From: Octopus vulgaris
Taxonomy: Eukaryota
Length of the DNA: 64,000 bases
Assembly (NCBI GenBank): GCA_951406725.2
Contig: OX597842.1
Span: 14,570,001-14,634,000, forward strand
Reading direction: 5' to 3'
Shown here: positions 13,186 to 61,885 of the stretch, piece after piece
How the letters are laid out: each line of letters starts with the position of its first letter
Position numbering within the stretch: position 1 is the first letter of the stretch
The notes under the pieces: model-generated
What the model saw: the letters and a program-made list of their open reading frames with translations, nothing else
What the model was told of the DNA's origin: nothing
The model's database searches: none
Translations under genes and position numbers: made by a program

Positions 13186-15908
13186 GATAAGAGTTGGGCG
13201 ATGGGAAGAGTTAGAGATGAGAGTTGGGTGATGTGAACAGTTGGTGTGAGGTCAGACGACGAAGAACTGTATACAGTGTGGATTTGTCAACGAAGACATC
13301 GATGTAATGATGCCATGTGAAAAGTCGGAATGAACTGGGCAACGAAGAACCACATTACGCAAATAATCCGGCCGGGTATGCCTACTTCCTTCACTTTAAT
13401 CAAATTGGCTTGCTGGGCTGCTCCCCGGTGCCGCATTTCGCAACATCATTTCTTAAATTTAAGATGTTTATTGTTACAGTTATATTGATATTACCTGATT
13501 TAGTAACAGAATGACAGTTAATTATTGCAGGTCTATATTACGTTTACAATTAAAAGTGATATTGTTAGACTAATTAAACTGCAGATAATTACAAGATCAG
13601 CTTAAATTGCCTGACTCTGAAATTTCGTAAATGAAACATGTAATATAGTCCGGTATCATGAAACTTGTTTTTATTAAAGACATCATCGGTAAACTTTAGG
13701 TTGATATCATAAACCCGATACCTTTTTAGAAATAAAAACACATTAGTTATAATTCTACAAAATTCTTTAAGCCTAAGATTTAGCTGATCTCTCTGTTACA
13801 GTTCAACTGAAATGTACCCTAGTTTGTACAGAGTGGGTTCGACTCTTCCTGAGTATCATTTCAGATTAAAGGATTTGTATTATATTGCATTAATCGTTCT
13901 TACTTCAAATTCCGCTGAAGTCGACTTTGCCTTTTATCCTTTCGGGTCGATAAATTAAGTAACAATTGCGTACTAGGGTCGATCTTATCGATTCTCCTTC
14001 CTCCAAAATTTCTGGTCTTTTGCCTAGAGTACAAAAAAGTTATATGGCATTAGATATTTCAAGTTTCCAGTTTAAATAAAATATTCCAATACTATATTCG
14101 ATCGATTCAAGCGAATTCACTTCTCTACATATTTGGGATTGTCTGAATTAAATAGAAATCCGTATATCTGCACATGGTGACTATACGATATATATTATTT
14201 AGAAATTTAAAATTTTCTTCATTTAATTTATAATTTAGTCAAAAATTGGCCGAACCTGCAGGCCGTCGAGTTGAATGACACCTTGTGGTATTTAATCTAG
14301 CATTCGGTATTCTGACTTAAAATCTAGCCAGGGACGTCCTTAACGTACGGAGTTTTGCGTACATAAAGAGGCCAGTGGACTAGACAAAGTGTAGGGATGT
14401 GGGACTGTGTCTCGTATGGAAATTTTCTAGCTCTTTGTATTTTAGGTTCAAATCCCACTTGTTTTTACTTTCTTCGTTTTGAAGAAGTAGAGGTCATTAA
14501 TTTCGCTGGTTGTGTGATATGGGTGAGAGTGAGGATGGTAATGCTCTGTTTAAATTGTTACAGATAAATTCCCGCCGGAAAGAAGACAGAAACATGGACA
14601 TTCCGTAATCCGATGTTCTGAGGATGAAGAAATAAACATAGCGGTTAATATTACTGAAGGAATGTTAATAAAAAGAGTGGTCTTACTTTGGTTACTTGAG
14701 CGTCAAAAAGTGGGAGTTGTTAGGATTGAAATATTTTCTGGTACTAAAATGAAAAAAAAAATGTCTTTTAAATTCCGTCCTAGATATACACGGGATTAAC
14801 TTTTTCCTATAGTGCTGTTTTTCTTCACAAGTGACTTCCTTCATGATCAAAAGAAAACAGAAGAGAATTCTTTAAGGCTGCCAGAATCCTTTGATTTGTA
14901 GATGTTTTTGAGTGAAAAGGTGTTGGACTTTATTCAAGAGGCAACTTTGAATATCTTGTCAGGCATTTTATGATATTCTATCATTTTCTGCCATCTGTTC
15001 CCATCTCTGTGACTTTAGCTTCAGCTAATAGATTAAATCTGAGCTGAGATATTTTGACTGTTAAAACTGCCATAGCACTGGATATGATTTGAGCGTGGAT
15101 CCAGTGACTTGTTGATGAGAGGGAAAAATTGTTTCGGGCTGCATTTGAGATGTTGATATGAGAGTCTATTTGTAGTACGTCAGTGTGTGTGAAAGATATG
15201 AAACAGTGATTAGCATGTCGCTGCACGATCATAATGTGATTGGTTCAGTTCTTGAACGAAGCTCGGTGTTTGGGACGTTGATCAGGAATGATCCAGTCTA
15301 TTAAGCTGTAAATGTGTACCAGTCAAGTATTGGATGCGACAGCTGGGTTAGGTTTAGGATTGGAGATATAAAAGCGTATCTATGTCAGCTCGGAAATACA
15401 TAGGCACCTGAAGCAATTAGTAAAAGCATTAGATATGTTGCCAAGACATACTCGCTCCACTCGCGCATTAAGGATGGCTATGAATATGTATGTGCGAATG
15501 TGTAAATCTTGAGTGAGAATCTACTATTCGGTAGGTTACGAGGCGGTTGACAATGGAACAGCCTGTAAATATAGGGATTACGTCAAATAAGGAAATACTT
15601 TGTTGGCGCAAACACTGCTGCCCTTTGGCTCAGCGTATCACCCATCTTCCACTCAGTCTACAATATGACAGCGCTGTAGTCTCAGTGAGAAAGTCATTCA
15701 TTGTCCAATGGTGTAAATGATACCAAGCTAGACAAAGGGACTTCTATGTAGTTTCCGAAGTGTATTACCGCTAACGCTTTTAGACTTAGTTAACATAGAT
15801 GTTATGAAGCTACCGAATAATGCAAATGACTTATAACTATGAATATTTCTTCATCCCGCATCGATTCTTGCGGAAATAAACAAAGGGCACAATCGGTTGT
15901 GGCCCACA
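13107..15908. repeat. Intronic block X, copy 1 (~2.8 kb; contains a SINE at ~13905-14035)
   Basis: High-identity copies at 19113, 23690, 27259, 30240 and 33276. Confidence 0.95.
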
Positions 15909-18312: not shown

Positions 18313-18382
18313 GGAATTGACCAATAATAACTCAATGAAATCAAACCAGAAACCTTCCAATATTTGACCAATTTAAAAATCT
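18313..18382 (+). pseudogene. LRR exon A1, 70 nt: frameshifted pseudo-exon or assembly indels
   Basis: ttccag| and |gtaagt are intact. It aligns to A2-A4 as ELTNN-LNEIKPETFQYLTNLK-(L) but has two 1-nt deletions, both at A-runs. Confidence 0.8.
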
Positions 18383-19112
18383 GTAAGTTAAACCAATCTT
18401 CATTTATAGTATATCATTGCCGATATATTTCCATGTTTGTAATTTCGCTCACTCTCGTCATTTTCCTTTCACACGGTATTATATGTTCATCATCATCGAC
18501 AAGAGAAACTTCACCACCAACATCATCAGCATCAACACCATGTTCATCATCACTATAAACATACAAATCCCTATTTACCTGTGTCTATCATTCGGTATGG
18601 ATATTATGTCTGGTGTTTACGCCAAATAACATACTTCAATACCGATGGCATTTGTACATTTAGAACTACGTCATTTATAAAATTCATTTATAAAATTCTT
18701 CTTGGACTTATTCTTGTTCCTTTCTTCTTCTTTTCTTCTCCTACTTATTCTTCACCTCTTTCGCTTCTTCTTTAACCTCTACTTCCACTTCATCTTCATT
18801 ACCTCCTCCACCTCTTCCTTGCTATTCTCCTTCTTACTCCTCCTCTTTTTCTTCGTCTTCTTTTCGTCATTTTCGTTTCCTTCATTTCATCATATTAGTT
18901 ATTATCTCCTTCTACATATTCTTCGTCTCCGTTTTCTTCTTCTACTTCCTCTACGTATTGTTTTAATGTTGTTGATTTGATGTTGTTTTTGTCCTACCAT
19001 TCTTGTTTTTCTTTCTCTTCTTCTACATCTTATCGTCCTGCTCTTCCTCATTTTCCTTCTTCTTCTTCTTCTTCTTCTTCTTCTTCTTCTTCTTCTTTTT
19101 CTACTTCTTCTT

Positions 19113-21915
19113 CTGTTTTTTCATATGTTAATTGTCCCCAAATTATGCGTATTGTCCCTCTATGTTAGACCCTTGTGGGTAATTAAAAATCGGATAAGAG
19201 TTGGGCGATGGGAAGAGTTAGAGATGAGAGGTGGGTGATGTGAATAGTTGGTGTGAGGTCAGACGACGAAGAACTGCATACGGTGTGGATTTGTTAACGA
19301 AGACATCGGTGTAATGATGCCATGTGAGGAGTCGAAATGAACCTGGCAACGAAGAACCACATTACGCAAATAATCCGGCTGGGTATGCCTACTTCCTCCA
19401 CTTTAATCAATTTGGCTTGCTGGGCGCCCCCCCCCCCCGGGTGCCGCATTTCGCAACATCATTTCCTAAATTTAAGATGTTTATTGTTACAGTTATATTG
19501 ATATTAGCTGATTTAGTAACAGAATGACAGTTAATTATTCCATGTCTATATTACGTTTACAATTAAAAGTGATATTGTTAGACTAATTAAACTGCAGATA
19601 ATTACGAGATTCTCTTAAATTGCCTGACTATGAAATTACGTAAATGAAACATGTAAAATAGTCCGGTATTATGAAACTTATTTTTATTAAAGACGTCATC
19701 GGTAAAATTTAGGTTGATATCATAAACCCGATAACTTTTTAGATATAAAAACACATTAGTTATAATTCTACAAATTTCTTTAAGCTTAAGATTTAGCTGA
19801 TCTCTCTGTTACAGTTCAACTGAAAAGTACCCTAGATTGCACAGAGTGGGTTCGACTCTTCCTGAGTATTATTTCAGATTAAAGGATTTGTGTTATATTG
19901 CATTAATCGTTCTTACTTCAAATTCCGCCGAAGTCGACTTTGCCCTTCATCCTTTCGGGGTCTATAAATTAAGTAACAGTTGCATACTAGGGTCGATCTA
20001 ATCGACTCTCCTTACACCAAAATATCTGGTATTTTGCCTACAGTAGAAAAAGTTATATGGCATTAAATACTTGAAGTTTCCAGTTTAAATAAAATATTCC
20101 AATACTATATTCGATCGATTCAAGCGAATTCACTTGCTTCTCTACACATTTGGGATTGTCTGAATAAAATAGAAATCGGTATATATGCAGATGGTGAATA
20201 TACGATATATACTATTTAGAAATTTTAATTCATAATTTAGTCAAAAATTGACCGAACCTGCAGCTCATCGACTTGAATGACACCTTGTGGTATTTAATCT
20301 GGCATTCGGTATTCTAACTTTAAATCTAGCCGAGGACATCCTTATATTACGGCTTTTTGCGTACTTGAAGAGGCCAGTGGACTAGACAAAGTGTAGGGAT
20401 ATCGGACTGGGTCTCGTATGGACATTTTCTAGCTCTTTCCATTTTAAGTTCAAATCCCACTTGCTTTTACTTTCTGCGTTTTGAAGAAGGAGTTGAGCTC
20501 ATTAATGTCGCTGGTTGTGCGATATTGGTGGGGGTGATGATGGTAATGCTCCGTTTAAATTGTTACAGATAAATTCCCACCGGAAAGAAGACAAGAACAT
20601 GGAGGACATTCCAGAAGCCGATGTTCTGAGGATGAAGAACTAAACATAGCGGTTAATATTACTGAAGGAATGTTAATAAAAAGAGTGGTCTTACTTTGGT
20701 TACTTGAGCGTCAAAAAGTGGGAGTTGTTAGGATTGAAATATTTTCTGGTTCTAAAAAGAAAAAAAATTGTCTTTTAAATTCAGTCCTAGATATACACGG
20801 GATCTACTTTCTCCTATAGTGATGTTCTACTTCAAAAGTGACTTCCTTCAGGATCAAAAGAGATGAGAATCCATTATGGCTGCCAGAATCCTTAGATGTT
20901 TAGATGTTTTTGTGTGAAAGGATGTTGGACTTTATTCAAGAGACAACTTTGAATTTCTTGTCAGACATTTATGATATTCTATCATTTTCTGCAATCAGTT
21001 CCTATCTCTGTGATTTTAGCTTCAGCCAATAGATAAATCCGATGTTTTGACCGTAAAAACTACCATATCACTGGATCTGATTTGAGCGTGGATCCAGTGA
21101 ATTGTTGATGACAGGGGAAACTTGCTATGGGCTGCATTTGAGCTGTTGGTATCGGTTTCTACTTGTAGTACCTCAGTATGTGTGAAAGATGTGATACAGT
21201 GATTAGCATGTCGCTGCACGATCATAATGTGATTGGTTCATTTCTTTAAGTGAGCAAGGTGTTTGGGAAGTTCTTCAGGATTTATCCAGTCTACCCAGCT
21301 GTAAATGTGTACCAGTCAAGTGTTAGAAGCGACAGCTGGGTTAGGGTTAGGGTTGGAGATATAAAAGTCTATCTATGTCTGCTCGGAAATACATAGGCAC
21401 CTGAAGCAATTAGTAAAAGCTTTAGATATGTTGCCAAGACATACTCGCTCCACTCGCGATTTAAGGATGGCTATGAATGTGTGTGCGAATGTGTAAATCT
21501 TGAGTGAGTATCTTCTATTCGGTAGGTTACAAGGCGGTGGATAATGGAACAGCATGTAAATATAGGGATTACGTCAAATATGGGACTACTTTGTTGGCGC
21601 AAACACAGCTGCCCTTTGGCTCAGCGTATCACCCATCTTCCCCTCAATCTATGGTTACAGGCAAAGCCGTGGGAAACAATATGACAGTCTCAGTGAGAAA
21701 GTCATCCATTAGCCAATGATGACAAAGATACGAAGCTAGACAAAGGGACTTCTGTATAGTTTCCGAAATGTATTACCGCTAACGCTTTTAGACTTAGCTA
21801 ACATAGATGTTATGAAACTAACGAATAATGCAAATAATTATAACTATAATTATTTCTTCATCAGGCATCGATTCTGGCGGGGATAGTCAAAGGGCACAAT
21901 CGGTTGTGGCCCAAA
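19113..21915. repeat. Intronic block X, copy 2
   Basis: Colinear with 13107..15908. Confidence 0.95.
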
Positions 21916-22946
21916 CTATTATTGCTATTATTATTATTATTGTTATTATTATTTTCTCCTTGTTTTTGTTCTTCTTTTCTTCTTCTGCTTCCCCTTCTTC
22001 TTCTGGTTCTTCTTCTTTTTCTTCCTCTACTTGTTCTTCTTCTTCTTATTATTTTTTTTAGTTCTTCTTCTTCTTGTTCTTCTTCTTGTTCTTCTTCTTC
22101 CTCTTCTTGTTCTTCTTCTTCTTCTTCTTCTTCTTCTTTTTCTTCTTCTTCTTCTTCTTCTTCTTCTTCTTCTTCTAATTTTTCTTTTGCACTATCTTCA
22201 CACTCATATTTTTTCCACTCTTATTCATTTCTATTTTTTTATCTTCTACTTTGCATCTGTCATCGTCTTCTTCTTTTCATCATTTTCCTTTTCTTCGTTT
22301 CACCATTTTAGTTATCTTCTCCATCTGCATATTCTTTCTCTCCGTTTACTTCTTCTACTTCCTCTAATTATTGTTTTTAATGTTGTTGATTTTGTGCTAA
22401 TTGTCTTCTTTTTCTTTCTTTTCTTCCACTTTGTATCTTCCTGCTCTACTTTTTCTTCTTTTTCTTCTTCTTCGTCGTTCTTCATTTCTAATCGCTCTTT
22501 TTTATATTCCATTTCGTCTACTTTTTCGTCATCTTCATATTTTTCTTCTACTTTTTCTTATTCTCCTTCTTACCGATTTTCATTTACTTCTCATTCATTA
22601 TCAATTTCTTCGTTCCCATTATCATTACCGACATTATTATCAGCAACACTTTTCTTTCTCTCAGTTTTCAATATTATCAGGCTCATCATTACCTTTATCT
22701 TTAACATCATTAATTACCACACACTACCGCAATAAGTTAGCTTTATCACCAACTTTATTCATTACCATATCCTACCGCAGTTAGTTGCACCCACTTCAAC
22801 ATCATCATCATCGTTATTATCAATTTCAACGGAACCGTAATCAACTCTTCGTGATTTCCATAGTTTATTTCCTTACTCGAAATATGTTATGTACTGCCAC
22901 TTGCCTGTTCCATAAAGTTTGAAATTAACTCAATTCTATATTGCAG

Positions 22947-23018
22947 GAGTTTTGGCGGTAATAATTTTACTGAAATCCAACCAGAAACCTTCCAATATTT
23001 GACCAATTTAACTACTCT
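22947..23018 (+). CDS. LRR exon A2: SFGGNNFTEIQPETFQYLTNLTT(L)
   Basis: 72 nt, ttgcag| ... ct|gtaagt, phase 2-2, open frame, 24-aa typical-class LRR. Confidence 0.92.
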
Positions 23019-23689
23019 GTAAGTTAAATCAATCTTCATTGACAGTATATCATTGCCGATATATTTCCAAGCTTGTAATTTCGCTCATTCTCTTCACCAC
23101 CAACATCATCAGCATCAACACCATGTTCATCATCACTATAAACATGCAAATCCCTATTCACCTGTGTCTATCATTCGGTATGGATATTATGTCTGGTGTT
23201 TACGCTAAATAACATGCTTCAATACCGATGGCATTTGTACGTTTAGAACTACGTCATTTATAAAACTCATTTATAAAATTCTTCTTGGACATATTCTTCT
23301 TCCTTTCTTCTTCTTTTCTTCTCCTACTTATTTTTCACCTCTCTCTCTTCTTCTTTAACTTCTACATCCACTTCATCTTCATTACCTCCTCCTGCACTTC
23401 CTTTCTCTTCTTCTTCTTATTCCTCCTCTTTTTCTTCTTCTTCTTCTTCTTTTCGTCATTTTCGTTTCCTTCATTTCATCATATTAGTTATAATCTCCTT
23501 CTACATATTCTTCGTCTCCGTTTTCTTCTTCTACTTCCTCTACGTATTGTTTTAATGTTGTTGATTTGATGTTGTTTTTGTCCTACCATTCTTGTTTTTC
23601 TTTCTCTTCTTCTACATCTTATCGTTCTGCTCTTCCTCATTTTTCTTCTTCTTCTTCTTCTTCTTCTTTTTCTTCTTTTTCTTCTTCTT

Positions 23690-25081
23690 CTGTTCTTTCA
23701 TATGTTTATTGTCCCCAAATGTGCGTATTGTCCGTCTATGTTAGACCCTTGTAGGTAATTAAAAATCGGATAAGTGTTGGGCGATGGGGAGAGTTAGAGA
23801 TGAGAGTTGGGTGATGTGAACAGTTGGTGTGAGGTCAGACGACGAAGAATGGCATACAGTGTGGATTTGTCAACGAAGACATTGGTGTAATGATGCCATG
23901 TGAGGAGTCGAAATGAACCTGACAACGAAGAACCACATTACGCAAATAATCCGGCTGGGTATGCCTACTTCTTCCACTTTAATCAAATTTGCTTGCTGGG
24001 CTGCGCCCCGGATGCCGCATTTCGCAACATCATTTCCTAAATTTAAGATATTTATTGTTACAGTTATATTGATATTAGCTGATTTAGTAACAGAATGACA
24101 GTTAATTATTGCATGTCTATATTACGTTTACCATTAAAAGTGATATCGTTAGACTAATTAAACTGCAGATAATTACGAGATCCGCTTAAATTGCTTGACT
24201 CTGAAATTACGTAAATGAAACATGTAAAATAGTCCGGTATTATGAAACGTATTTTTATTAAAGACGTCATTGGTAAAATAAACCCGATACATTTTTAGAA
24301 ATAAAAAGACATTAGTTATAATTCTACAAAATACTTTAAGCTTAAGATTTAGCTGATCTGTCTGTTACAGTTCAACTGAAATGTACCCTAGATTGTACAG
24401 AGTGGGTTTGACTCTTCCTGAGTATTATTTCAGATTAAAGGATTTGTATTACATTGCATTAATCGTTCTGACTTCAAATTCCGCAGAAGTCGACTTTACC
24501 TTTCATCCTTTCGGATGTATTACCGCTAAAAGTCTATCTATGTCTGCTCGGAAATACATAGGCACCTGAAGCAATTAGTAAAAGCTTTAGATATGTTGCC
24601 AAGACATACTCGCTCGACTAGCGATTTAAGGATGGCTATGAATGTGTGTGCGAATGTGTAAATCTTGAGTGAGTATCTTCTATTCGGTAGGTTACCAGGC
24701 GGTGGATAATGGAACAGCCTGTAAATATAGGGATTACGTCAAACAAGGGACTACTTTGTTGTCGCAAACACAGCTGCCCTTTGGCTCAGCGTATCACCCA
24801 TCTTCCACTCAATCTATGGTTACAGGCAAAGCCGTGGGAAACAATATGACAGTATCAGTGAGAAAGTCATCCATTAGCCAATGGTGACAATGATACGAAG
24901 CTAGACAAAGGGACTTCTGTATAGTTTCCGAAATGTATTACCGCTAACGCTTTTAGACTTAGCTAACATAGATGTTATGAAACTAACGAATAATGCAAAT
25001 AATTATAACTATAATTATTTCTTCATCAGGTATCGATTTTGGCGGGGATAGTCAAAGGGCACAATCGGTTGTGGCCCAAAC
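23690..25081. repeat. Intronic block X, copy 3 (~1.4 kb internal deletion)
   Basis: Matches X up to ~24514 and resumes at taaaagtctatctatg. Confidence 0.92.
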
Positions 25082-26108
25082 TATTTTTACTATTATTATT
25101 ATTATTGTTATTATTATTTTCTCCTTGTTTTTGTCATTTTTTTCTTCTTCTGCTTCTTCTTCTTCTTCTTCTTCTGCTTCTTTTTCTTTTCTTCTTCTTC
25201 TTCTTCTTGTTTTTCTTCTTGTTTTTCTTGTTCTTTTTCTTCCTCTTCTTCTTCTTCTTCTTTTTCTTCTTCTTCTTTTTCTTCTTCTTCTTTTTCTCTT
25301 TGTCTTCTTCTTCTTCTTCTTCTTCTTCTTCTTCTTCTTCTAATTTTTCTTTTGCACTATCTTCACACTCATATTTTTTCCACTCTTATTCATTTTTATT
25401 TTTTTATCTTCTACTTTGCATCTGTCATCGTCTTCTTCTTTTCATCATTTTCCTTTTCTTCGTTTCATCATTTTAGTTATCTTCTCCATCTGCATATTCT
25501 TTCTCTCCGTTTACTTCTTCTACTTCCTCTAATTATTGTTTTTAATGTTGTTGATTTTGTGCTAATTGTCTTCTTTTTCTTTCTTTTCTTCCACTTTGTA
25601 TCTTCCTGCTCTACTTTTTCTTCTTTTTCTTCTTCTTCGTCGTTCTTCATTTCTAATCGCTCTTTTTTATATTCCATTTCGTCTGCTTTTTCGTCATCTT
25701 CATATTTTTCTTCTACTTTTTTTTATTCTCCTTCTTACCGATTTTCATTTACTTCTCTTTCATTATCAATTTCGTTCCCATCATCATTACCGACATTATT
25801 ATCCGCAACACTTTTCTTTCTCTCAGTTTTCAATATTTTCAGGCTCATAATTACCTTTATCATTAACTTTATTCATTACCAAACACTACCGCAATAAGTT
25901 AGCTTTATCATCAACTTTATTCATTACCATATCCTACCGCAGTGAGTTGCACCCACTTGAACATCATCATCATCGTTATTATCAATTTCAACAGAACCGT
26001 AATCAACTCTTCATGATTTCAATAGTATAATTCCTTGCTCAAAATATGTTATATACTTCCAAAAACCTGTTCCATAAAGTTTCATCCTAACTCAATTTTA
26101 TGTTCCAG

Positions 26109-26180
26109 GGGTTTGTGGCGTAATAATGTAACTGAAATCAAACCAGAAACCTTCCAATATTTGACCAATTTAAAGTATCT
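26109..26180 (+). CDS. LRR exon A3: GLWRNNVTEIKPETFQYLTNLKY(L)
   Basis: 72 nt, ttccag| ... ct|gtaaga, phase 2-2. Confidence 0.92.
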
Positions 26181-26465
26181 GTAAGATAAATCAATCTTCA
26201 TTTATAGTATATCATTGCCGATATATTTCCATGTTTGTAATTTCGCTCACTCTCGTCATTTTCCTTTCACCCGGTATTATATGTTCATCATCATCGACAA
26301 GAGAAACTTCGCCGCCATCATCATCATCATCATCATTATCAATTTCAACAGAACCGTAATCAACTCTTCATGATTTCCATAGTTTAATTCCTCACTCGTT
26401 TTTTTGTTTATACTTCCAAAAACATGTTCCATAAAGTTTCATCTTAAATCAATTTTACGTTCCAG

Positions 26466-26537
26466 GGAATTGTGGGGTAATAATCTCACTGAAATCAAAC
26501 CAGAAACCTTCCAATATTTGACCAATTTAAAAAGTCT
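26466..26537 (+). CDS. LRR exon A4: ELWGNNLTEIKPETFQYLTNLKS(L)
   Basis: 72 nt, ttccag| ... ct|gtaagt, phase 2-2. Confidence 0.92.
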
Positions 26538-27258: not shown

Positions 27259-29600
27259 CTGTTCTTTCATATGTTAATTGTCCCCAAATGTGCGTAATGT
27301 CCGTCTACGTTAGACCTTTGTGGGTAATTAAAAATCGGATAAGAGTTTGGCGATGGGAAGAGTTAGAGATGAGAGTTGGGTGATGTGAACATTTGGTGTG
27401 AGGTCAGACGAAGAAGAACTGCATACAGTGTGGATTTGGCAACGAAGACATCGGTGTAATGATGCCATGTGAGCAGTCGAAATGAACCTGGCTTGCTGGG
27501 CAGCCCCCCGGATTCCGCATTTCGCAACATCATTTCCTAAATTTAAGATGTTTATTGTTACAGTTATATTGATATTAGCTGATTTAGTAACAGAATGACA
27601 GTTAATTATTGCATGTCTATATTACGTTTACCATTAAAAGTGATATTGTTAGACTAATTAAACTGCAGATAATTACGAGATCCGCTTAAATTGCCTGACT
27701 CTGAAATTACGTAAATGAAACATGTAAAGTAGTCCGGTATTATGAAACTTATTTTTATTAAAGACGTCATCAGGAAAAATTTAGGTTGATATCATAAACC
27801 CGATAATTTTTAGATATAAAAACACGTTAGTTATAATTCTACAAAATACTTTAAGCTTAAGATTTAGCTGATCTGTCTGTTACAGTTCAACTGAAAAGTA
27901 CCCTAGATTGTACAGAGTGTTTTCGACTCTTCCTGAGTATTATTTCAGATTAAAGGATTTGTATTATATTGCATTAATCGTTCTGACTTCAAATTCCGCC
28001 GAAGTCGACTTTGCCTTTCATCCTTTCGGGATCGATAAATTAAGTAACAGTTGCGTACTAGGGTCGATCTTATTGACTCTCCTTCCTCCAAAATTTCGGG
28101 TCTTGTGCCTACAGTAAAAAAAACTTATATGGAATTAAATATTTCAAGTTTCCAGATTAAATAAAATATTAAAATACTATATTCGATTAATTCAAGCGAA
28201 TTCACTTGCTTCTCTACACATTTGGGATTGTCTGAATTAAATAGAACTCCATATATCTGCAGATGGTGAATATACGATATATATTATTTAGAAATTTTAA
28301 ATTTTCGTAGTTTAATTCATAATTTAATCAAAAATTGGCCGATTATGCAAGCCGTGGAGTTGAATGACACCTTGTGGTTTTTAATCTTGCATTCGGTATT
28401 CTGACTTAAAATCTAGCAGAGGACGTCCTTAACTTACGTCTTTCTGCGTACCTAAAGAGACCAGTGGTCTAGACAAAGTGTAGGGACGTGGGGCTGGGTC
28501 TCGAATGGAACTTTTCTAGCTCTTTGTATTTTAAGTTGAAATCACACTTGATTTTACTATCTGCGTTTTGAAGAGGTAGTAGAGCTCATTAATTTCGCTG
28601 GTTGTGTGATATGGGTGAGAGTGATGATGGTAATGCTCCGTTTAAATTATTACAGATAAATTTGCGCCGGAATGAAGACAAGAACATGGAGGACATTCCA
28701 GAAGCCGATGTTCTGATGATGAAGAACTAAACATAGCGGTTAATATTACTGAAGGAATGTTAATAAAAAGAGTGGTCTTACTTTAGTTACTTGAGCATCA
28801 AAAAGTGGGAGTTGTTGAGGGATGAAATATTTTCAGGTTCTAAAATGAAAAAAAAAATGTCTCTTAAATTCAGTCCTAGATATACATCACCTATAGTGAT
28901 GTTCTTCTTCAAAAGTGACTTCGTTGATGATCAAAAGAGATGAGAATCCATCATGGTTGCCAGAATCCTTAGATTTTTAGATGTTTTAGCGTGAAAAGAT
29001 GTTGGACATTATTCAAGAGACAACTTTGAATTTCTTGTCAGGCATTTTATGATATTCTATCATTTCCTGCAATCTGTTCCCATCTCCGTGACTTTAGCCT
29101 CAGCCAATAGATTAAATCTGAGCTGAGATGTTTTGACTGTTAAAACTGCCATAGCACTGGATATGATTTGAGCGTGGATCCAGTGACTTCTTGATGAGAG
29201 GGAAAAACTGTTTTGGGCTGCATTTGAGCTGTTGGTATCAGTTTCTACTTGTAGTACCTCAGTATGTGTGAAAGATGTGATACAGTGATGTGCATGTCAC
29301 TGCACGATCATAATGTGATTGGTTCAGTTCTTTAACTAAGCTCGGTGTTTGGGACGTTGATCAGGATTGATCCAGTCTACATAGTTGTCAAGTGTTGGAT
29401 GCGACAGCTGGGTTAGGGTTAGGGTTCGAGATATAAAAGTCTATCTATGTCTGCTCGGAAATACATAGGCACCTGAAGCAATTAGTAAAAGCTTTAGATA
29501 TGTTGCCAAGACATACTCGCTCGACTAGCGATTTAAGAATGGCTATGAATGTGTGTGTGAATGTGTAAATCTTGAGTGAGTATCTTCTATTCGGTAGGTT
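27259..29600. repeat. Intronic block X, copy 4 (3' truncated; the unit lost its exon)
   Basis: Joins directly to post-exon intron sequence at 29600. Confidence 0.92.
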
Positions 29601-30239
29601 GTAATTTCGCTCATTCTCTTCACCACCAACATCATCAGCACCAACACCATGTTCATCATCACTATAAACATGCAAATCCCTATTCACCTGTGTCTATCAT
29701 TCGGTATGGATATTATGTCTGGTGTTTACGCTAAATAACATGCTTCAATACCGATGGCATTTGTACATTTAGAACTACGTCATTTATAAAACTCATTTAT
29801 AAAATTCTTCTTGGACTTATTCTTCTTCCTTTCTTCTTCTTTTCTTCTCCTACTTATTTTTCACCTCTTTCTCTTCTTCTTTAACTTCTACATCCACTCC
29901 ATCTTCATTACCTCCTCCTGCACTTCCTTGCTCTTCTTCTTCTTATTCCTCCTCTTTTTCTTCTTCTTCTTCTTCTTTTCGTCATTTTCGTTTCCTTCAT
30001 TTTATCATATTAGTTATAATCTCCTTCTACATATTCTTCGTCTCCGTTTACTTCTTCTACTACCTCTACTTATTGTTTTAATGTTGTTGATTTTATGTTG
30101 TTTTTGTCCTACCATTCTTGTTTTTCTTTCTCTTCTTCTACATCTTATCGTCCTGCTCTTCCTCATTTTTCCTCTTCTTCTTCTTCTTCTTCTTCTTCTT
30201 CTACTTCTTCTTCTACTTCTTCTTCTTCTACTTCCTCTT

Positions 30240-33200
30240 CTGTTCTTTCATATGTTTATTGTCCCTCTATGTTAGACCCTTGTGGGTAATTAAAAATCGG
30301 ATAAGAGTTGGGCGATGTGAAGAGTTAGAGATGAGATTTGGGTGATGTGAACAGTTAGTGTGAGGTCAGACGAAGAAGAACTGCATACAGTCTGGATTTG
30401 TGAACGAAGACATCGGTGTAATGATGCCATGTGAGGAGTCGAAATGAACCTGACAACGAAGAACCACATTACGCAAATAATCCGGCCGGGTATGCCTACT
30501 TCCTCCACTTTAATCAAATTTGCTTGCTGGGCTGCGCCCCGGATGCCGCATTTCGCAACATCATTTCCTAAATTTAAGATGTTTATTGTTACAGTTATAT
30601 TGATATTAGCTGATTTAGTAACAGAATGACAGTTAATTATTGCATGTCTATATTACGTTTACCATTAAAAGTGATATTGTTAGACTAATTAAACTGCAGA
30701 TAATTACGAGATCCGCTTAAATTGCTTGACTCTGAAATTACGTAAATGAAACATGTAAAATAGTCCGGTATTATGAAACGTATTTTTATTAAAGACGTCA
30801 TTGGTAAAATTTAGGTTGATATCATAAACCCGATACCTTTTTAGATATAAAAACACATTAGTTATAATTCTACAAATTTCTTTAAGCTTAAGATTTAGCT
30901 GATCTCTCTGTTACAGTTCAACTGAAAAATTACCCTAGATTGTACAGAGTGTGTTCGACTCTTCCTGAGTATTATTTAAGATTAAAGGATTTGTATTATA
31001 TTGCATTAATCGTTCTGACTTCAAATTCCGCCGAAGTCGACTTTGCCTTTCATACTTTCGGGATCGATAAATTAAGTAACAGTTGCGTACTAGTGTCGAT
31101 CTTATTGACTCTCCTTCCTCCAAAATTTCGGGTCTTGTGTCTTCAGTAGAAAAAGTTATATGGAATTAAATATTTCAAGTTTCCAGTTTAAATAAAATAT
31201 TAAAATACTATATTCGATTAATTCAAGCGAATTCACTTGCTTCTCTACACATTTGGGATCGTCTGAATTAAATAGAACTCCGTATATCTGCAGATGGTGA
31301 ATATACGATATATATTATTTAGAAATTTTAAATTTTCGTAGTTTAATTCATAATTTAATCAAAAATTGGCCGATTATGCAAGCCGTGGAGTTGAATGACA
31401 CCTTGTGGTTTTTAATCTTGCATTCGGTATTCTGACTTAAAATCTAGCCGAGGACGTCCTTAACTTACGGCTTTCTGCGTACCTAAAGAGACCAGTGGAC
31501 TAGACAAAGTGTAGGGACGTGGGGCTGGGTCTCGAATAGAAAGTTTCTAGCTCTTTGTATTTTAAGTTGAAATCACACTTGATTTTACTATCTGCGTTTT
31601 GAAGAAGTAGTAGAGCTCATTAATTTCGCTGGTTGTGTGATATGGGTGAGAGTGATGATGGTAATGCTCCGTTTAAATTATTACAGATAAATTTGCGCCG
31701 GAATGAAGACAAGAACATGGAGGACATTCAGAAGCCGATGTTCTGATGATGAAGAACTAAACATAGCGGTTAATATTACTGAAGGAATGTTAATAAAAAG
31801 AGTGGTCTTACTTTAGTTACTTGAGCATCAAAACGTGGGGGTTGTTGAGGGATGAAATATTTTCAGGTTCTAAAATGAAAAAAAATATGTCTTTTAAATT
31901 CAGTCCTAGATATACACGGGATCTACTTTCTTCTAGAGCGATGTTCTTCTTCAAAAGTGACTTCCTTGATGATCAAAAGAAAAAAGAAGACAATTCTTTA
32001 TGGCTGCCAGAATCCTTAGATTTTTAGATGTTTTAGCGTGAAAAGATGTTGGACATTATTCAAGAGACAACTTTGAATTTCTTGTCAGGCATTTTATGAT
32101 ATTCTATAATTTCCTGCAATCTGTTCCCATCTCTGTGACTTTAGCCTCAGCCAATAGATTAAATCCGAGCTGAGATGTTTTGACTGTTAAAACTGCCATA
32201 GCACTGGATATGATTTGAGCGTGGATCCAGTGAGTTCCTGATGAGAGGGAAAAACTGTTTTGGGCTGCATTTGAGCTGTTGGTATCGGTTTCTACTTGTA
32301 GTACCTCAGTATGTGTGAAAGATGTGATTCAGTGATGAGCATGTCACTGCACGATCATAATATGATTGGTTCAGTTCTTTAACTAAGCTCGGTGTTTGGG
32401 ACGTTGATCAGGATTGATCCAGTCTACATAGGTGTCAAGTGTTGGATGCGACAGCTGGGTTAGGGTTAGGGTTCGAGATATAAAAGTCTATCTTTGTCTG
32501 CTCGGAAATACATAGGCACCTGAAGCAATTAGTAAAAGCTTTAGATATGTTGCCAAGACATACTCGCTCGACGCGCGAATAAAAGATGGCTATGAATGTG
32601 TGTGTGAATGTGTAAATCTTGAGTGAGAATCTACTATTCGGTAGGTTACCAGGCGGTGGACAATGGAACAGCCTGTAAATATAGGGATTAAGTGAAATAA
32701 GGAAATACTTCGTTGGCGCAAACACAGCTGCCCTTTGGCTCAGTGTATCACCCACCTTCCACTCCAATCGGTAGCATCAGTTATATATAATTACAATTGT
32801 AATTAGTGACGACATATAAGGATATGGCTTTAATTATAGATATATAATAGCATGAAAGTGTAATAAAACTAGGTTTAACGAAATGGACCAGCAAAGACAA
32901 AACAACTCATGAATTCACTAATGAAAAGTGATAACAACACAATTATCAAATCTTCCCACGAGATGATGATTAGCAGACCTAACATCAGTTCTCAATCAAA
33001 ATAAATCTAGTAATGAAAGGGTTGTGGGTGTAGAACACCTTGTTATGTGGAGTATAGTTGCAAAGGTGAAGATATATAAGGTACAGAGTACAATAAGCCA
33101 TATTCTGTAAGATAAAATCTATGAAGTCTTAGCTTGCCAGCCGACATCCTAAATATCAAGTGTGAGATCTTCACCACTTGTCTGCAACCAAGGGCAAAAT

Positions 33201-34796
33201 AAGAACATTGTATACTTCAAGCACTACGTTAGTCATTGTAAAAGTTTACTTGTTAGAAAAGCAATTACTTTAAAGATCCTTTCGTGGTCGATAAATTAAG
33301 TAACAGAATCGATTCTCCTTCCTCCAAAGTTTCGGGTCTTGTGTCTACAGTAGAAAATGTTATATGGCAATAAATATTTCAAGTTTTCAGTTTAAATAAA
33401 ATATTCCAATACTATATTCGATCGATTCAAGCGAATTCACTTGCTTCTTTACACATTTGGGATTGTCTGAACTAAATAGAGATCCGTATTTCTGCATATG
33501 GTGAATATACGATATATATTATTTGTTATTTTAAATTTTCATAATTTAATTCATAATTTATTCAAAAATTGGCCGAACCAGCAAGCCATCTGACTTAAAA
33601 TCTAGCCGAGGACGTCCTTAACTTACGGCTTTTTGCGTACCTAAAGAGGCCAGTGGACTAGACAAAGTGTAGGGATGTGGGGCTGGGTCTCGTATGGAAA
33701 TTTTCTAGCTCTTTTTACTTTTATACTTTCTGCGTTTTGAAGAAGGAGTAGAGATCATTAATTTCGCTGGTTGTGTGATATGGGTGAGAGTGATGACGGT
33801 AATGCTCCGTTTAAATTGTTACTGATAAATTCCTGGAATGAAGACAAGAACATGGAGGACATTCCAGAAGCCGATGTTCTGAGGGTGAAGAACTAAACAT
33901 AGCGGTTAATATTACTGAAGGAATGTTAATACAAAGAGTGGTCTTAGTTTGGTTACTTGAGCATCAAAAAGTGGGTGTTGTTGACGGGTGAAATATTTTC
34001 ATGTTCTAAAATGAAAAAAAATGTCTTTTAAATTCCGACCTAGATATACACGGGATCTACTTTCTGCTATAGTGATGTTCTTCTTCAAAAGTGACTTCCT
34101 TCATGATCAAAAGAAAACAGAAGAGAATTCTTCATGTCTGCCAGAATCCTTGGATTTGTAGATGTTTTTGTGTGAAAAGAAGTTGGACTTTATTCAAGAG
34201 ACAAACTTTGAATTTCTTGTCAGGCATTTTATGATATTCTAACATTTAATGCAATCTGTTCCCATCTCTGTGACTTTAGCCTCAGCCAATAGATTAAATC
34301 TGAGCTAAGATGTTTTGACTGTGAAAACTGCCATAGCACTGGAAATGGTTTGAGCGTGGATCCAGTGACTTGTTGATGAGAGGGGAAATTGTTTTGGGCT
34401 GCATTTCAGCTGTTGGTATCAGTTTCTACTTGTAGTACCTCAGTGTGTGTGAAAGATGTGATACAGTGATGAGCATGTCGCTGCACGATCATAATGTGAT
34501 TGGTTCAGTTCCTGAACTAAGCTCACTGTTTGGGACGTTGATCAGTAGGGTTAGGATTGGAGATATAAAAGTGTATCTATGTCTGCTCGGAAATACATTG
34601 GCACCTGAAGCAATTAGTAAAAGCATTAGATATGTTGCCAAGACATACTCGCTCGACTCGCGAATAAAGGATGGCTATGAATGTGTGTGTGAATGTGTAA
34701 ATCTTGAGTGAGAATCTACTATTCGGTAGGTTACGAGGCAGTTGACAATGGAACAGCCTTTAAATATAGGGATTACGTCAAATAAGGAAATACTCT
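30240..34796. repeat. Intronic block X copy 5 (30240..32764), duplicate of 16035..16546, and partial X copy 6 (33276..34796); no LRR exon
   Basis: Direct alignment by eye. Confidence 0.9.
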
Positions 34797-35752: not shown

Positions 35753-35824
35753 AAACTTTGGTGATAATGCCATCACGGAAATCAAACCTAACGTCTTCCG
35801 AAATTTGTCAAGTTTAGAAGCTCT
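35753..35824 (+). CDS. LRR exon B1: NFGDNAITEIKPNVFRNLSSLEA(L)
   Basis: 72 nt, ttaactcaattttctgtttcag| ... ct|gtaagt, phase 2-2. Confidence 0.92.
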
Positions 35825-36405: not shown

Positions 36406-36721
36406 TTTATATATATATATCTACATAATGGTGTTGGCCATTTGTGGTTGTGTGTCTACGTGTCTGTTTATCTATGGATATGTGTATGCAAGTGTATGAA
36501 AATTTACTAGTAATTCGGTCTCTATATCAAGGACGGTATTTATATTTCAATCATTATCATCATCATCATCATCATCATCATCTCTTCTTTATGGATAGTA
36601 ACAACCTTATATTTTCACCTCTACCTCATATAATATTCATCACTATAAATATCACAACTACCACCATCCCTATCACCATAGTTTTCTTTTCCCCCTTCCC
36701 ACTCATCGTCCTCCTATCGTC

Positions 36722-36789
36722 CTGGGTTCTAATGACATCAAGGAAATCAAAGCTGACACCTTCCGAAATTTGTCCAGGTTAAAATATCC
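36722..36789 (+). pseudogene. Dead LRR exon: LGSNDIKEIKADTFRNLSRLKY
   Basis: LRR frame intact, but the acceptor/polypyrimidine region is deleted and the donor is changed from ct|gtaagt to cc|ctaaat; downstream intron is homologous to that of B1/C. Confidence 0.85.
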
Positions 36790-38046: not shown

Positions 38047-38118
38047 AATCTTGTATAATAATGATATCCAAGTAATAAAACCTGGCACCTTCCAATATTT
38101 ATCCAGTTTAAGATTACT
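38047..38118 (+). CDS. LRR exon C1: ILYNNDIQVIKPGTFQYLSSLRL(L)
   Basis: 72 nt, ttccag| ... ct|gtaagt, phase 2-2. Confidence 0.92.
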
Positions 38119-38836: not shown

Positions 38837-38908
38837 AGACTTATCTTGGAATGGCATCACAGAAATCAAAGATGACACCTTCCAATATTTGTCCAGTTTA
38901 ACAGAACT
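38837..38908 (+). CDS. LRR exon C2: DLSWNGITEIKDDTFQYLSSLTE(L)
   Basis: 72 nt, ttccag| ... ct|gtaagt, phase 2-2. Confidence 0.93.
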
Positions 38909-49100: not shown

Positions 49101-49632
49101 TTTTTCTTCTTATTCGTCATATTCTTCCTCTTATTCTTTCTTTCATTTCCTACCCTATGTCCTTCTGCGTATCTTAATTTATGTCTAACCACTTCCCCTT
49201 CATAATTCTTTTTTTCTCCTGCTTTGGTTGTGTGTGTATGTGTCTGTTTGTGTATTGCTTAACATTCTAGACTTCTATTTCTGCTTCTTCTTCTTCATCG
49301 TCCCCATCCTCCTTCTTCATCCTTCTTCTCGCTCCTCCTCATCTTATTCTTTTTTCTTCTTCTTTGCTTCTTCTCCTCCTCCTACTCCTACTTATACTTC
49401 TACTTATACTTGTTGTCGTTGTTGTTCTGCTCATTCTTCCTTGTCTTTTTACTCGTCTACATTTTTCCTTCTGATTCTTCATATCCTTCCTTTCTCTTAT
49501 TCTTCGATTTCATTTTCTTCACACTCTCCTCTGCATCTATCAATTTATCTCTCCCCGCTTCCCCTTCCTCATTGTTCTTTTTATCCGGCTTTTACTTTTC
49601 TTGCCTCTTCTACTCATTGCCGTTGTTGTAGC

Positions 49633-49681
<49 letters not shown>

Positions 49682-50250
49682 CTTGTTCTTCTTCATCTTC
49701 TTGTTCTCCTCCCCCTCCTCCCCCTCCTCCTCCTTCTTCTTCTTCTGCTGCTTCTGCTCCTGCTGCTTCTTCTTCTTCCCTTTCCTTTTGTTGTCATCGT
49801 CTTCTTTCGCCTCTTTTTCCTTTCGCAATTTATTTTGTTTTCCTTCTGCTCTTCTTTTTCTGTCTCTCCTTCTTCTTTGTCATCTTCTTCTTGTTGCTGC
49901 TTTTCTTCTTCATCTTTTACTTCTGCTACTCCTTCGTTTCGTCTAGTTCTTATTTTTCTACTCCTCCTCCTTCAACTCTTCATTCTCTCCTTTCTTTTTG
50001 TTCTTCCTCTACTACATCTCCTCTACTTTCCTTCTTTTTCCTCTTCTATTCCTTCTTTTTCTGTTATTTTCCGTCTTCTTCTGTTCTCTTCCTTCCTCCC
50101 CTCCTCTTCATATTCTTCCTTCTCGCCGTCCCTCTCATCATCATCTCCATTTAAATTTCTTAATTATATCTAATTTTTTCGCCATAATATTTAACATTTT
50201 GTCACTAATCTTTTCTATATGTTTGTTATGAACTCCGTTTTATGTTACAG

Positions 50251-50322
50251 GAATTTGAATGACAATAATATCACGTATATTCAACGCGGTACCTTCGAAA
50301 ACCTTCCGAATTTAGAAGAACT
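50251..50322 (+). CDS. LRR exon D1: NLNDNNITYIQRGTFENLPNLEE(L)
   Basis: 72 nt, gttacag| ... ct|gtgagt, phase 2-2. Confidence 0.92.
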
Positions 50323-50696
50323 GTGAGTTGTGTCGCTTTTGTTCGTACCATCTATTTCCCCATATATCTACATTGTTAATATCTTCTCCAACTTTGTTTT
50401 TTTCTCTCTCTCTTTCAAGAGTGTATCTATCTAACACCCGTTCACTCTCTCCATAGTTTTCTCTGAGTGTATGTGTGAATGCGTGTTTGTGAAAGTGTAG
50501 GTGTGTGGATGAATGAGCTTCTTTTTTACTTACTTCTTATGCATAGGTAATCATGTTCTTGTTTATAAACATCCGTTTACCTAATATTTAAATTCTCATT
50601 ATTCAACTATATTCCATCATTTTTTCTCGTTGTTTACTTTTTTATTCTAGTTTTCTAAGTTTATCTTTTAATCTTCATATGTTTTTGTGTATGGAT

Positions 50697-51450
50697 GTAC
50701 AGATACCGAGTATATCAGAAAAAAGTGTCCAAATTTTAGATACAAATTCGAAACGTTGTGTCTCAGTATTACTTAAAGGTAACAGAAGTATCAGCGGCTT
50801 TTCTTACACAAATGGGCCATATTTTGAGCAAGACGAAATGTGAGTTCCTCTCCAAGCTCTCATGAATAATCATGAATGAATTGGCGAAGATGAAATTCTA
50901 TGTTTTAACATAGCTCAGGATTGGGAGCTCATGAAATACTGGAATAAAGTCCAAACGGAAGGTTTTAAAGTGATATTTGAAAGATTGAGTAAGAATTCTG
51001 GCCAAACCCTTGGATTTTAGGCATCATGAGTTACTCCTTGTTTGACAAAGACTTTATCAACCCTTTTCCTGCCTTACCACAAAATTTCTTATGGAAGTTC
51101 TCATCAATGTCCTATTCACACGACCTAAGAATGGATGTTTCGAGGGCTTTCAGATAGGTGTGGGGCTACTCACAAACATTTTTATGATCAGTTCATGCCA
51201 GATGCTGACGTCTAAAGTGCTCAAACCAGGGGATGAATGAGGCCAAGTGTCCTTATCCTAAAACCTTTTCGCAAACTCATCCATGGGAAACACTTGTCTC
51301 ACTACACTTGTGTCACAAGGAACATCATCTTACCATCAGAGATCATGCATTTGAAAAGTATCACTTAGTCAGGTTTTTGCCCCTAAAATGACATTATTAC
51401 TTTCTCGTGAGCTGAAGCGAGAACTCAGCTGTCGCGTCAGTTTGTGCGCA
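50697..51450 (-). mobile_element. Tc1/mariner transposase C-terminal relic, repeated in each D unit (~52835, 54990, 57183)
   Basis: Minus strand gives W*DDVPCDT (QDGAPAHT-like) and TWPHSSPGLSTLDVSIW (WPPSSPDLNPLD..IW-like). Confidence 0.7.
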
Positions 51451-51785
51451 TATCGAGGGTGAATATCCTTCTTCTCGCTCCTCCTCATCTTATTATTTTC
51501 TTCTTCTTCTTCTTTGCTTCTTCTTCTCCTCCTACCTCTACTTATACTTCTACTTGTAGTTGTTGTCGTTGTTGTTGTTGTTCTTCTTCTTCCTTGTCTT
51601 TTTACTCGTCTACATTTTTCCTTCTGATTCTTCATATCCTTCCTTTCTCTTATTCTTCAATTTCATTTTCTTCACACTCTCCTCTGCATCTATCAATTTA
51701 TCTCTCCCCGCTTCCTCTTCCTCATTGTTCTTTTTATCCGGCTTTTACTTTTCTTGCCTCTTCTACTCATTGCCGTTGTTGTAGC

Positions 51786-51819
<34 letters not shown>

Positions 51820-52388
51820 CTTGTTCTTCTTCATCTTCTTGTTCTCCTCCCCCTCCTCCCCCTCCTCCTCCTTCTTCTTCTTCTGCTGCTTCTGCTCCTG
51901 CTGCTTCTTCTTCTTCCCTTTCCTTTTGTTGTCATCGTCTTCTTTCGCCTCTTTTTCCTTTCGCAATTTATTTTGTTTTCCTTCTGCTCTTCTTTTTCTG
52001 TCTCTCCTTCTTCTTTGTCATCTTCTTCTTGTTGCTGCTTTTCTTCTTCATCTTTTACTTCTGCTACTCCTTCGTTTCGTCTAGTTCTTATTTTTCTACT
52101 CCTCCTCCTTCAACTCTTCATTCTCTCCTTTCTTTTTGTTCTTCCTCTACTACATCTCCTCTACTTTCCTTCTTTTTCCTCTTCTATTCCTTCTTTTTCT
52201 GTTATTTTCCGTCTTCTTCTGTTCTCTTCCTTCCTCCCCTCCTCTTCATATTCTTCCTTCTCGCCGTCCTCTCATCATCATCTCCATTTAAATTTCTTAA
52301 TTATATCTAATTTTTTTCGCCATAATATTTAACATTTTGTCACTAATCTTTTCTATATGTTTGTTATGAACTCCGTTTTATGTTACAG

Positions 52389-52460
52389 GAATTTGAATGA
52401 CAATAATATCACGTATATTCAACGCGGTACCTTCGAAAACCTTCCGAATTTAGAAGAACT
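52389..52460 (+). CDS. LRR exon D2 (identical to D1)
   Basis: 72 nt with the same splice sites. Confidence 0.85.
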
Positions 52461-53922
52461 GTGAGTTGTGTCGCTTTTGTTCGTACCATCTATTTCCCCA
52501 TATATCTACATTGTTAATATCTTCTCCAACTTTGTTTTTTTCTCTCTCTCTTTCAAGAGTGTATCTATCTAACACCCGTTCACTCTCTCCATAGTTTTCT
52601 CTGAGTGTATGTGTGAATGCGTGTTTGTGAAAGTGTAGGTGTGTGGATGAATGAGCTTCTTTTTTACTTACTTCTTATGCATAGGTAATCATGTTCTTGT
52701 TTATAAACATCCGTTTACCTAATATTTAAATTCTCATTATTCAACTATATTCCATCATTTTTTCTCGTTGTTTACTTTTTTATTCTAGTTTTCTAAGTTT
52801 ATCTTTTAATCTTCATATGTTTTTGTGTATGGATGTACAGATACCGAGTATATCAGAAAAAAGTGTCCAAATTTTAGATACAAATTCGAAACGTTGTGTC
52901 TCAGTATTACTTAAAGGTAACAGAAGTATCAGCGGCTTTTCTTACACAAATGGGCCATATTTTGAGCAAGACGAAATGTGAGTTCCTCTCCAAGCTCTCA
53001 TGAATAATCATGAATGAATTGGCGAAGATGAAATTCTATGTTTTAACATAGCTCAGGATTGGGAGCTCATGAAATACTGGAATAAAGTCCAAACGGAAGG
53101 TTTTAAAGTGATATTTGAAAGATTGAGTAAGAATTCTGGCCAAACCCTTGGATTTTAGGCATCATGAGTTACTCCTTGTTTGACAAAGACTTTATCAACC
53201 CTTTTCCTGCCTTACCACAAAATTTCTATGGAAGTTCTCATCAATGTCCTATTCACACGACCTAAGAATGGATGTTTCGAGGGCTTTCAGATAGGTGTGG
53301 GGCTACTCACAAACATTTTTATGATCAGTTCATGCCAGATGCTGACGTCTAAAGTGCTCAAACCAGGGGATGAATGAGGCCAAGTGTCCTTATCCTAAAA
53401 CCTTTTCGCAAACTCATCCATGGGAAACACTTGTCTCACTACACTTGTGTCACAAGGAACATCATCTTACCATCAGAGATCATGCATTTGAAAAGTATCA
53501 CTTAGTCAGGTTTTTGCCCCTAAAATGACATTATTACTTTCTCGTGAGCTGAAGCGAGAACTCAGCTGTCGCGTCAGTTTGTGCGCATATCGAGGGTGAA
53601 TATCCTTCTTCTCGCTCCTCCTCATCTTATTATTTTCTTCTTCTTCTTCTTTGCTTCTTCTTCTCCTCCTACCTCTACTTATACTTCTACTTGTAGTTGT
53701 TGTCGTTGTTGTTGTTGTTCTTCTTCTTCCTTGTCTTTTTACTCGTCTACATTTTTCCTTCTGATTCTTCATATCCTTCCTTTCTCTTATTCTTCAATTT
53801 CATTTTCTTCACACTCTCCTCTGCATCTATCAATTTATCTCTCCCCGCTTCCTCTTCCTCATTGTTCTTTTTATCCGGCTTTTACTTTTCTTGCCTCTTC
53901 TACTCATTGCCGTTGTTGTAGC

Positions 53923-53971
<49 letters not shown>

Positions 53972-54544: not shown

Positions 54545-54616
54545 GAATTTGAATGACAATAATATCACGTATATTCAACGCGGTACCTTCGAAAACCTTC
54601 CGAATTTAGAAGAACT
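54545..54616 (+). CDS. LRR exon D3 (identical to D1)
   Basis: 72 nt with the same splice sites. Confidence 0.85.
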
Positions 54617-61813: not shown

Positions 61814-61885
61814 ATATTTGAGCAACAACCAAATACAAAACTATGAGGATGGCGCGTTCTTATTCCTTCCCAGTATTAATCAAAT
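61814..61885 (+). CDS. LRR exon E (single copy): YLSNNQIQNYEDGAFLFLPSINQ(I/M)
   Basis: 72 nt, strong acceptor ttcttttttccag| and donor at|gtatgt, phase 2-2; the gene continues beyond the window. Confidence 0.9.

Follow-up and report, generated by a model that had tools for sequence, protein, structure and literature searches.

Why should the exons of one gene, set in similar introns, differ almost only in a handful of codons? The question is raised by a 64,000-nt stretch of the Octopus vulgaris genome (GenBank assembly GCA_951406725.2, contig OX597842.1, positions 14,570,001 to 14,634,000, forward strand; hereafter the window). Four of its exons, A1–A4, are phase-2 exons that each encode one leucine-rich repeat (LRR) of an octopus adhesion G protein-coupled receptor (GPCR) gene of about 112 kb. 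The original prediction, made from the letters of the window, held that these exons vary almost only in the segment LxxLxLxxNxL, whose x positions would form the concave ligand-binding face of the LRR solenoid. On balance, we favor the answer that predicted binding-side codons outpace silent sites through germline selection for new specificities against changing, probably non-self (microbial) ligands.

Within the window, an identical 30-nt core marks the four exons. It occurs exactly four times (at 18346, 22981, 26143, and 26500), a number reached in 0 of 100 shuffles, and a genome search returned 17 matches with at most one mismatch and none for the reversed control. The exons lie where they had been placed, and A2–A4 are 72 nt long, but A1 has 70 nt and is out of frame. 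The codon differences reported between the exons reappeared in our alignment, and A1 and A4 indeed differ at 5 of the 6 nt of codons 3–4 but at only 3 of the first 200 nt of the downstream intron. The likeness of the introns is close downstream but much weaker upstream, with 14 differences in 99 nt between A1 and A4; in 103 downstream nt, A2 shows 22–23 differences from each of the other copies. Codon 7 varies, as had been noted, but it is the consensus L of NxL rather than an exposed x, and codons 6, 8, and 11 vary too. The core is free of synonymous change, but this does not make it special, because the downstream intron is conserved to about the same degree. In a set of 15 A-class copies, kept from 30 fetched loci by intron identity alone, nucleotide diversity (π) was 0.448 at the six variable codons, 0.085 in the upstream intron, and 0.020 in the downstream intron, and codons 9–21 varied at codons 11 and 19 only. 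It is the strand codons, not the core, that stand out in the A class.

We extended the comparison to an exon catalogue covering 1.07 Mb (14 array stretches, several in part only, and two short loci). It holds 191 exon matches: 164 intact exons of 72 nt, 2 in-frame exons of 69 nt, and 25 dead copies. From 830 pairs with alignable flanks we took 62 non-overlapping pairs (124 of the 164 intact exons) with introns within 10% of each other, and we defined the x-sites as codons 22, 23, 1, 3, and 4, which are LRR positions x2, x3, x5, x7, and x8 of LxxLxLxxNxL. At these sites the proportion of nonsynonymous differences (pN) was 0.257 (187.5/729), against a proportion of synonymous differences (pS) of 0.052 (10.5/201; Fisher p = 3e-12); the values at non-x codons were 0.031 and 0.052. 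Divided by the exon-wide pS of 0.058, pN was 4.46 at x-sites (bootstrap 3.3–6.4), 1.13 at codon 6, 0.78 at convex codons, and 0.20 at consensus codons. The 55 pairs without an A-class exon, which are independent of the discovery set, gave an x-site pN of 0.211 and a pS of 0.038. Between near-identical copies, with introns 1.2% apart, x-site pN was 0.18. In exon 1, the final two codons, with which the first strand starts, had a pN of 0.29 and no synonymous differences across 13 genes. Taken together, these counts give good support to diversifying selection on the side predicted to bind.

Each strand spans a splice junction: LxxLxLxxN is built from L21-x22-x23-L24 at the end of one exon and x1-L2-x3-x4-N5 at the start of the following one, so that exon gain, loss, or skipping would make new strand sequences. 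Positions x2, x7, and x8 flank the strand, and established LRR geometry, in which they face the same side as the strand x residues, predicts this orientation here. As stand-ins for the spliced product of the window gene, we used fold models of two database relatives, P0010 and P0031. In the AlphaFold model of the paralogue P0010 (LRR pLDDT mostly 84–96), strands lie at x3-L4-x5 of each repeat, which the available text of PMC4598782 gives as the concave-sheet strand. The best matches of this model in the Protein Data Bank were lamprey variable lymphocyte receptors (VLRs), the variable residues of which sit around the concave sheet (PMC3900441, available part); fold neighbors also included NGL, Slit, SALM, and AMIGO. 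The strand placement in the paralogue model and the excess of amino acid change at x-sites support the proposed position of the variable sites on the concave face. Nor do the variable residues appear to be convex or buried ones, the buried consensus codons being constrained. The likeness to VLRs that had been drawn stands as an analogy only, as the gene is an adhesion GPCR and not a VLR.

The variants also appear to move between copies. Among the 15 A copies, all four gametes were present in 48 of 171 site pairs, the minimum number of recombination events (Rm) was 6, implying at least six events, and incompatibility was lowest between neighboring sites (P = 0.006 against permutation). The 5′ and 3′ variable blocks are unlinked (Mantel r = −0.09). 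Because the same multi-base variants recur as mosaics, in new combinations across different genes, germline exchange among copies is likely. Genes with 90–96% identity in the 7TM (seven-transmembrane) exon have anywhere between 9 and more than 30 LRR exon matches, and 0 of the 191 exon matches are inverted. We also asked whether A-class variants had come in from other exon classes, and for most no source was found (9 of 11 codon-3/4 hexamers are without a donor there), and we dropped a retroelement-like NNT codon bias, as third-base T probably fits ordinary codon use.

Independent sequences came from two coded runs, X4 and X7, for which the tissue is not given and an RNA origin is a guess only. 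Contigs of both match 10807–10959/60 with no differing letter and leave the window sequence at the end of exon 1. Among the matches listed, X7 contigs of family members contain in-phase exon-exon joints, and one joint together with one loose end gives three consecutive live exons of a paralogue on C9 with the dead remnant skipped; joints involving the A exons of the window gene itself were not seen among these matches. Two further X7 exon starts in the same matches are absent from the 164-exon catalogue and depart from the closest copies at codons 1, 3, and 4 only. One of these comes after an exon-1 end that just one of the 13 extracted genes has; the start may come from an allele of that gene or from an unfetched paralogue. 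Among gene models of O. sinensis, the differences are whole repeats of 24 residues, which is consistent with exon skipping, and two of the four repeats of one protein are identical to exons of the O. vulgaris genome. A protein search with A4 and its in-frame upstream intron gave nothing at E ≤ 10 among four candidates, which is weak evidence, and no A-class orthologue from other species.

The concentration of change at strand codons might instead come from a dedicated mutator or templated conversion, germline or somatic, aimed at these codons in the manner of VLRs or hypermutation. A mild excess of multi-base changes, high silent variation beside the selected codons in class A, and the new X7 variants would fit this account. 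However, consensus codons 2 and 5, which are interleaved with the variable ones, are almost invariant in the 15 A copies even at silent bases; pS is the same at x-sites as elsewhere (0.052 and 0.052); no deaminase signature was seen, C/T differences being rarer at x-sites (0.10) than in introns (0.31); and the same 9 of 11 hexamers lack a donor. In a block duplication, x-site bases differed at 13 of 75 positions in live exons and 1 of 39 in dead ones (p = 0.03; other sites, 4/285 and 1/147), and five splice-less remnants had a π of 0.044 at x-sites and 0.037 elsewhere, against 0.62 and 0.24 in their live neighbors. Because dead exon copies do not diversify at x-sites, selection is favored over a targeted mutator, which we consider quite unlikely, and somatic diversification is unsupported. 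Were there no selection at all, conversion would have homogenized introns and cores, and the variable codons would be old differences, neutral or under relaxed constraint, in copies that are decaying. Some pairs do combine near-identical introns with very different exons (27/72 nt), frameshifts and dead exons are common, and the window copy has three gaps, but pN should then be close to pS, and a 4.5-fold excess that recurs at the same five positions in every exon class, with consensus codons constrained, makes this account very improbable. Consensus errors in a repeated region, against which the original prediction had cautioned, may explain the gaps, as A1 and one other A copy have 3 and 4 private indel events and 10 of the 15 copies have none. 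It is not possible for such errors to single out five codons in 62 pairs, and variation of this kind appears in independent sequences too: the two O. sinensis repeats are identical to genome exons, and an independent run varies at the same sites. For substitutions the explanation is refuted, and overall we give it almost no weight.

The window gene belongs to a family of about 50 loci. Exon 1 has 48 matches in the genome and the 7TM exon 61 (51 at E < 1e-20); as we read the two tables, many of these are paired on one strand, 50–170 kb apart. Among named proteins, the nearest belong to Octopus vulgaris, O. sinensis, and O. bimaculoides, and the public models retrieved are often LRR-only or GAIN-7TM-only fragments. 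The group-3 LRR proteins A0A0L8FLR8, A0A0L8GYR2, and A0A0L8HDZ7 fall in 90% clusters of the top matches to P0010, and by this sequence clustering, rather than by a tree, the gene is a member of the octopus "group 3" expansion (Ritschard et al., 2019; PMC6408891). In the available text of that paper, group 3 combines GPS with a secretin-type 7TM, forms tandem clusters, and has LRRs in some members (5 of 22 sequences); one-repeat exons, variable repeat number, and mosaic exchange, all seen here, are not described in that text. In a search outside which most subscription journals lay, we found no published account of how individual sites vary in the family or of its exon structure. The expansion itself was already known; the site-level variation and one-repeat exon structure appear to be new.

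A number of observations weigh against selection for new specificities. In 15 of the 62 pairs, as read from the pair list, x-site differences are absent. The counts are pairwise and not from a likelihood model, and recombination makes the pairs less than fully independent. The intron differences (313/12365 in the 62 pairs) are biased low as a baseline by the choice of close-intron pairs, with pS about twice the intron divergence, and therefore only pN/pS is safe. A 7TM exon control gave a pN/pS of 0.95 in the five closest genes, from few changes and with a stop in one gene, and is not clearly constrained; the dead-exon control is small. Multi-base codon changes are mildly in excess (59 against 51.5 expected, P = 0.009), and silent variation in class A is high at codons 6–7 (codon 7 pS 0.84); we read both as short-tract exchange and hitchhiking. 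As assembled, the gene carries three 1-nt frameshifting gaps, without a nonsense substitution, and among the run contigs none was seen that joins its LRR exons to its own 7TM. A published test found branch-level selection and no selected sites (PMC6408891, available part), for which the fragmentary public models may be the reason. Family terms are absent from the main text and one supplement of a paper on octopus hemocyte single-cell preparation (PMC13230822). Finally, the main sites of group-3 expression are axial nerve cord, suckers, and skin for one species and gills for another (PMC6408891, available part).

In the mechanism that we propose, exon-plus-intron units would be spread, both inside a gene and from one gene to another, by tandem duplication, unequal crossing-over, and short tracts of gene conversion, and the same exchange would keep cores and introns alike. 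Selection would retain new variants at x2, x3, x5, x7, and x8, and exon gain, loss, or skipping would add further strand sequences. A ligand on the LRR face would then signal through the GAIN/tethered-peptide 7TM module, and we lean slightly toward a microbe or parasite surface as the putative ligand. The same evolution could serve another purpose, namely a cell-identity, wiring, or contact-chemosensory code of the arm nerve cord, suckers, and skin, with self or prey ligands, like that of clustered protocadherins. Adhesion GPCRs often act in wiring, the fold neighbors include NGL, Slit, SALM, and AMIGO beside VLRs, and the nerve cord, sucker, and skin expression would suit such a code. Against it stand the very recent, repeated replacements at the same sites between near-identical copies, and the 25 dead copies among 191 exon matches and the repeat number of 9 to more than 30 would suit an arms race more than a code that is stable; we regard this purpose as possible but doubtful. 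An improbable extension of selection for new specificities is an anticipatory recognition system, in which hemocytes or barrier cells would each display a different LRR face through cell-specific exon skipping or somatic conversion atop the germline repertoire. If true, such a system would be the functional equivalent of lamprey VLRs, coupled to a G-protein switch. Conservation is the norm among adhesion GPCRs, and little is known of the immune repertoire of cephalopods; about 50 loci with an LRR arm diversifying like plant resistance genes or VLRs form a candidate set of variable recognition receptors in these animals. With five positions per repeat now defined, ligand screens, swaps, and population tests become possible.

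The gene reads, in order, signal peptide, LRRNT, 12 LRR exons, LRRCT, Ly6-like, SEA-like, HRM, GAIN/GPS, and 7TM (Table 1). The LRR exons (A1–A4, B1–B3, C1–C4, and a last one at 61814) have AG/GT borders and are in phase 2 throughout; one remnant without splice sites lies among them. A downstream exon matches the secretin-family 7TM (PF00002, 7tm_2; E = 5e-10), the transmembrane exons are open and in phase, and the GPS matches PF01825 (E = 1e-15) with the motif HL/TSF. Pfam searches of the exons of the gene and of its relatives gave no match to the rhodopsin-type 7tm_1. On these sequence grounds, the gene is an adhesion GPCR, with cleavage and G-protein signaling as predictions. Other assignments are weaker. 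The LRRNT match of exon 1 (E = 0.008) and a GAIN match on a paralogue are below the Pfam cut-off, the Ly6/uPAR-like match is weak (E = 0.014), and the SEA-like domain, which has no Pfam match, is named from relatives and predicted secondary structure. The predicted fold of a full-length relative matches HRM-GAIN structures, its best match being the Gpr126/ADGRG6 ectodomain (Z 25.9, rmsd 13.7, 407 aligned). LRR and 7TM lie within one protein in full-length relatives, and in the window gene the reading phases from LRR to 7TM agree except where A1 and the second Ly6-like exon have their 1-nt gaps.

Table 1. Exons of the octopus adhesion GPCR gene (window positions, except for the last row)
Feature	Position	Strand	Remarks
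Exon 1, signal peptide and LRRNT cap	10758..10959	+	ATG 10778; ends in phase 2; assigned from sequence
LRR exon A1	18313..18382	+	70 nt; two 1-nt gaps; frameshifted as assembled
LRR exon A2	22947..23018	+	72 nt; AG/GT; open
LRR exon A3	26109..26180	+	72 nt; AG/GT; open
LRR exon A4	26466..26537	+	72 nt; variable codons 26467-69, 26473-78, 26530-35; invariant core 26500-26529
LRR exon B1	35753..35824	+	
Dead LRR exon remnant	36718..36789	+	no acceptor, no donor; one of 5 similar remnants across paralogues
LRR exon B2	38047..38118	+	
LRR exon B3	38837..38908	+	
LRR exon C1	50251..50322	+	C1–C3 identical
LRR exon C2	52389..52460	+	
LRR exon C3	54545..54616	+	
LRR exon C4	56738..56809	+	
Last LRR exon	61814..61885	+	gene runs on past the window
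Downstream exons	G000:C29:14643201 to ~14692700		LRRCT, Ly6-like x2, SEA-like x3, HRM x2, GAIN x4, GPS, 7TM x5, tail

The two gaps in A1 are single-base gaps that each adjoin a short base run and put the exon out of frame. The third leaves the second Ly6-like exon one base short, and all other downstream exons are open and in phase; the extra base is present in 6 of 6 paralogues with a located donor. Private single-base indel events, intronic ones included, number three in A1 and four in one other A copy, and 10 of the 15 copies have none. We incline to the view that the copy is intact and the three gaps are consensus errors; it may instead be a recently broken allele.

Other features of the region were observed. 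Four tandem units of about 2.15 kb fill window positions 49319–57603, and the exon shared by C1–C3 occurs twice more in a paralogue at C29:13893313 and 13895475; C1–C3 are as yet without variation because their amplification is very recent. Copies of A-unit introns without an exon match lie at 13094–15906 and 27491–34794, one of which (at about 29600) begins just past the place of the exon and suggests exon loss. On the minus strand, an inverted neighboring paralogue (G000:C29:14478436-14512166, L012–L017) has eight LRR exon matches, three of them broken, and no exon-1 match was found for it in 14440001–14570000. At G000:C9:114156549 and 114160915 (L085), the exons differ at 27 of 72 nt and the 200 flanking intron nt at 3, and exon and intron histories are therefore uncoupled. 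A close paralogue at G000:C29:15326764-15327150 (L133) has an in-frame stop late in a 7TM exon. An O. bimaculoides relative (P0017, P0165) has a Death domain after the 7TM, and a Death domain is also mentioned in the available text of PMC6408891. The window begins with a long array of mixed ATA/ATG triplet repeats (1–2760), and microsatellites dominated the output of a whole-window repeat finder. The open frames at 3012–5129 (+), 6229–8076 (−), 12181–12822 (+), and 59761–60556 (+) are presumably retrotransposon or mariner-type fragments.

Comparison with known systems sets the gene apart from each of them in part. LRR GPCRs such as LGR and GRL101 have a rhodopsin-family 7TM; unlike them, the octopus gene has 7tm_2 and GPS. 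The SEA-HRM-GAIN-7TM stalk is like that of ADGRG6/GPR126, and ADGRA2/3 resemble the octopus gene in carrying N-terminal LRRs. These vertebrate receptors are single-copy and conserved, whereas the octopus gene has a Ly6-like domain after the LRRCT, no Ig domain that we saw, and a family of about 50 loci. Lamprey and hagfish VLRs, the best fold matches of P0010, share with the octopus gene the 24-residue typical LRRs with caps and the variable concave face (PMC3900441, available part). VLRs, however, are assembled somatically from cassettes, from an incomplete germline gene, and end in a GPI (glycosylphosphatidylinositol) anchor or a short transmembrane stalk without a 7TM. The octopus repeats are ordinary AG/GT exons within the gene, with exon-exon joints in family members, their diversity is visible in the assembled genome, and a GAIN-7TM module follows them.

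Plant NLR/LRR resistance genes are likewise clustered birth-and-death families with unequal exchange and diversifying selection on xxLxLxx (in part, PMC3341825, available part); the octopus gene differs in repeat class and signaling domain and in having its repeats as separate exons. By analogy, the working design to which it appears most similar is that of the Ectocarpus ROCO genes (Zambounis et al., 2012; PMC3341825, available part). Those genes encode intracellular Roc-COR GTPases with plant-type repeats and inverted intronic exons, whereas the octopus output is a GAIN-7TM receptor. What the two have in common is one 72-nt exon per 24-residue repeat, dead exons within introns, exchange within and between genes, and selected sites on the concave face.

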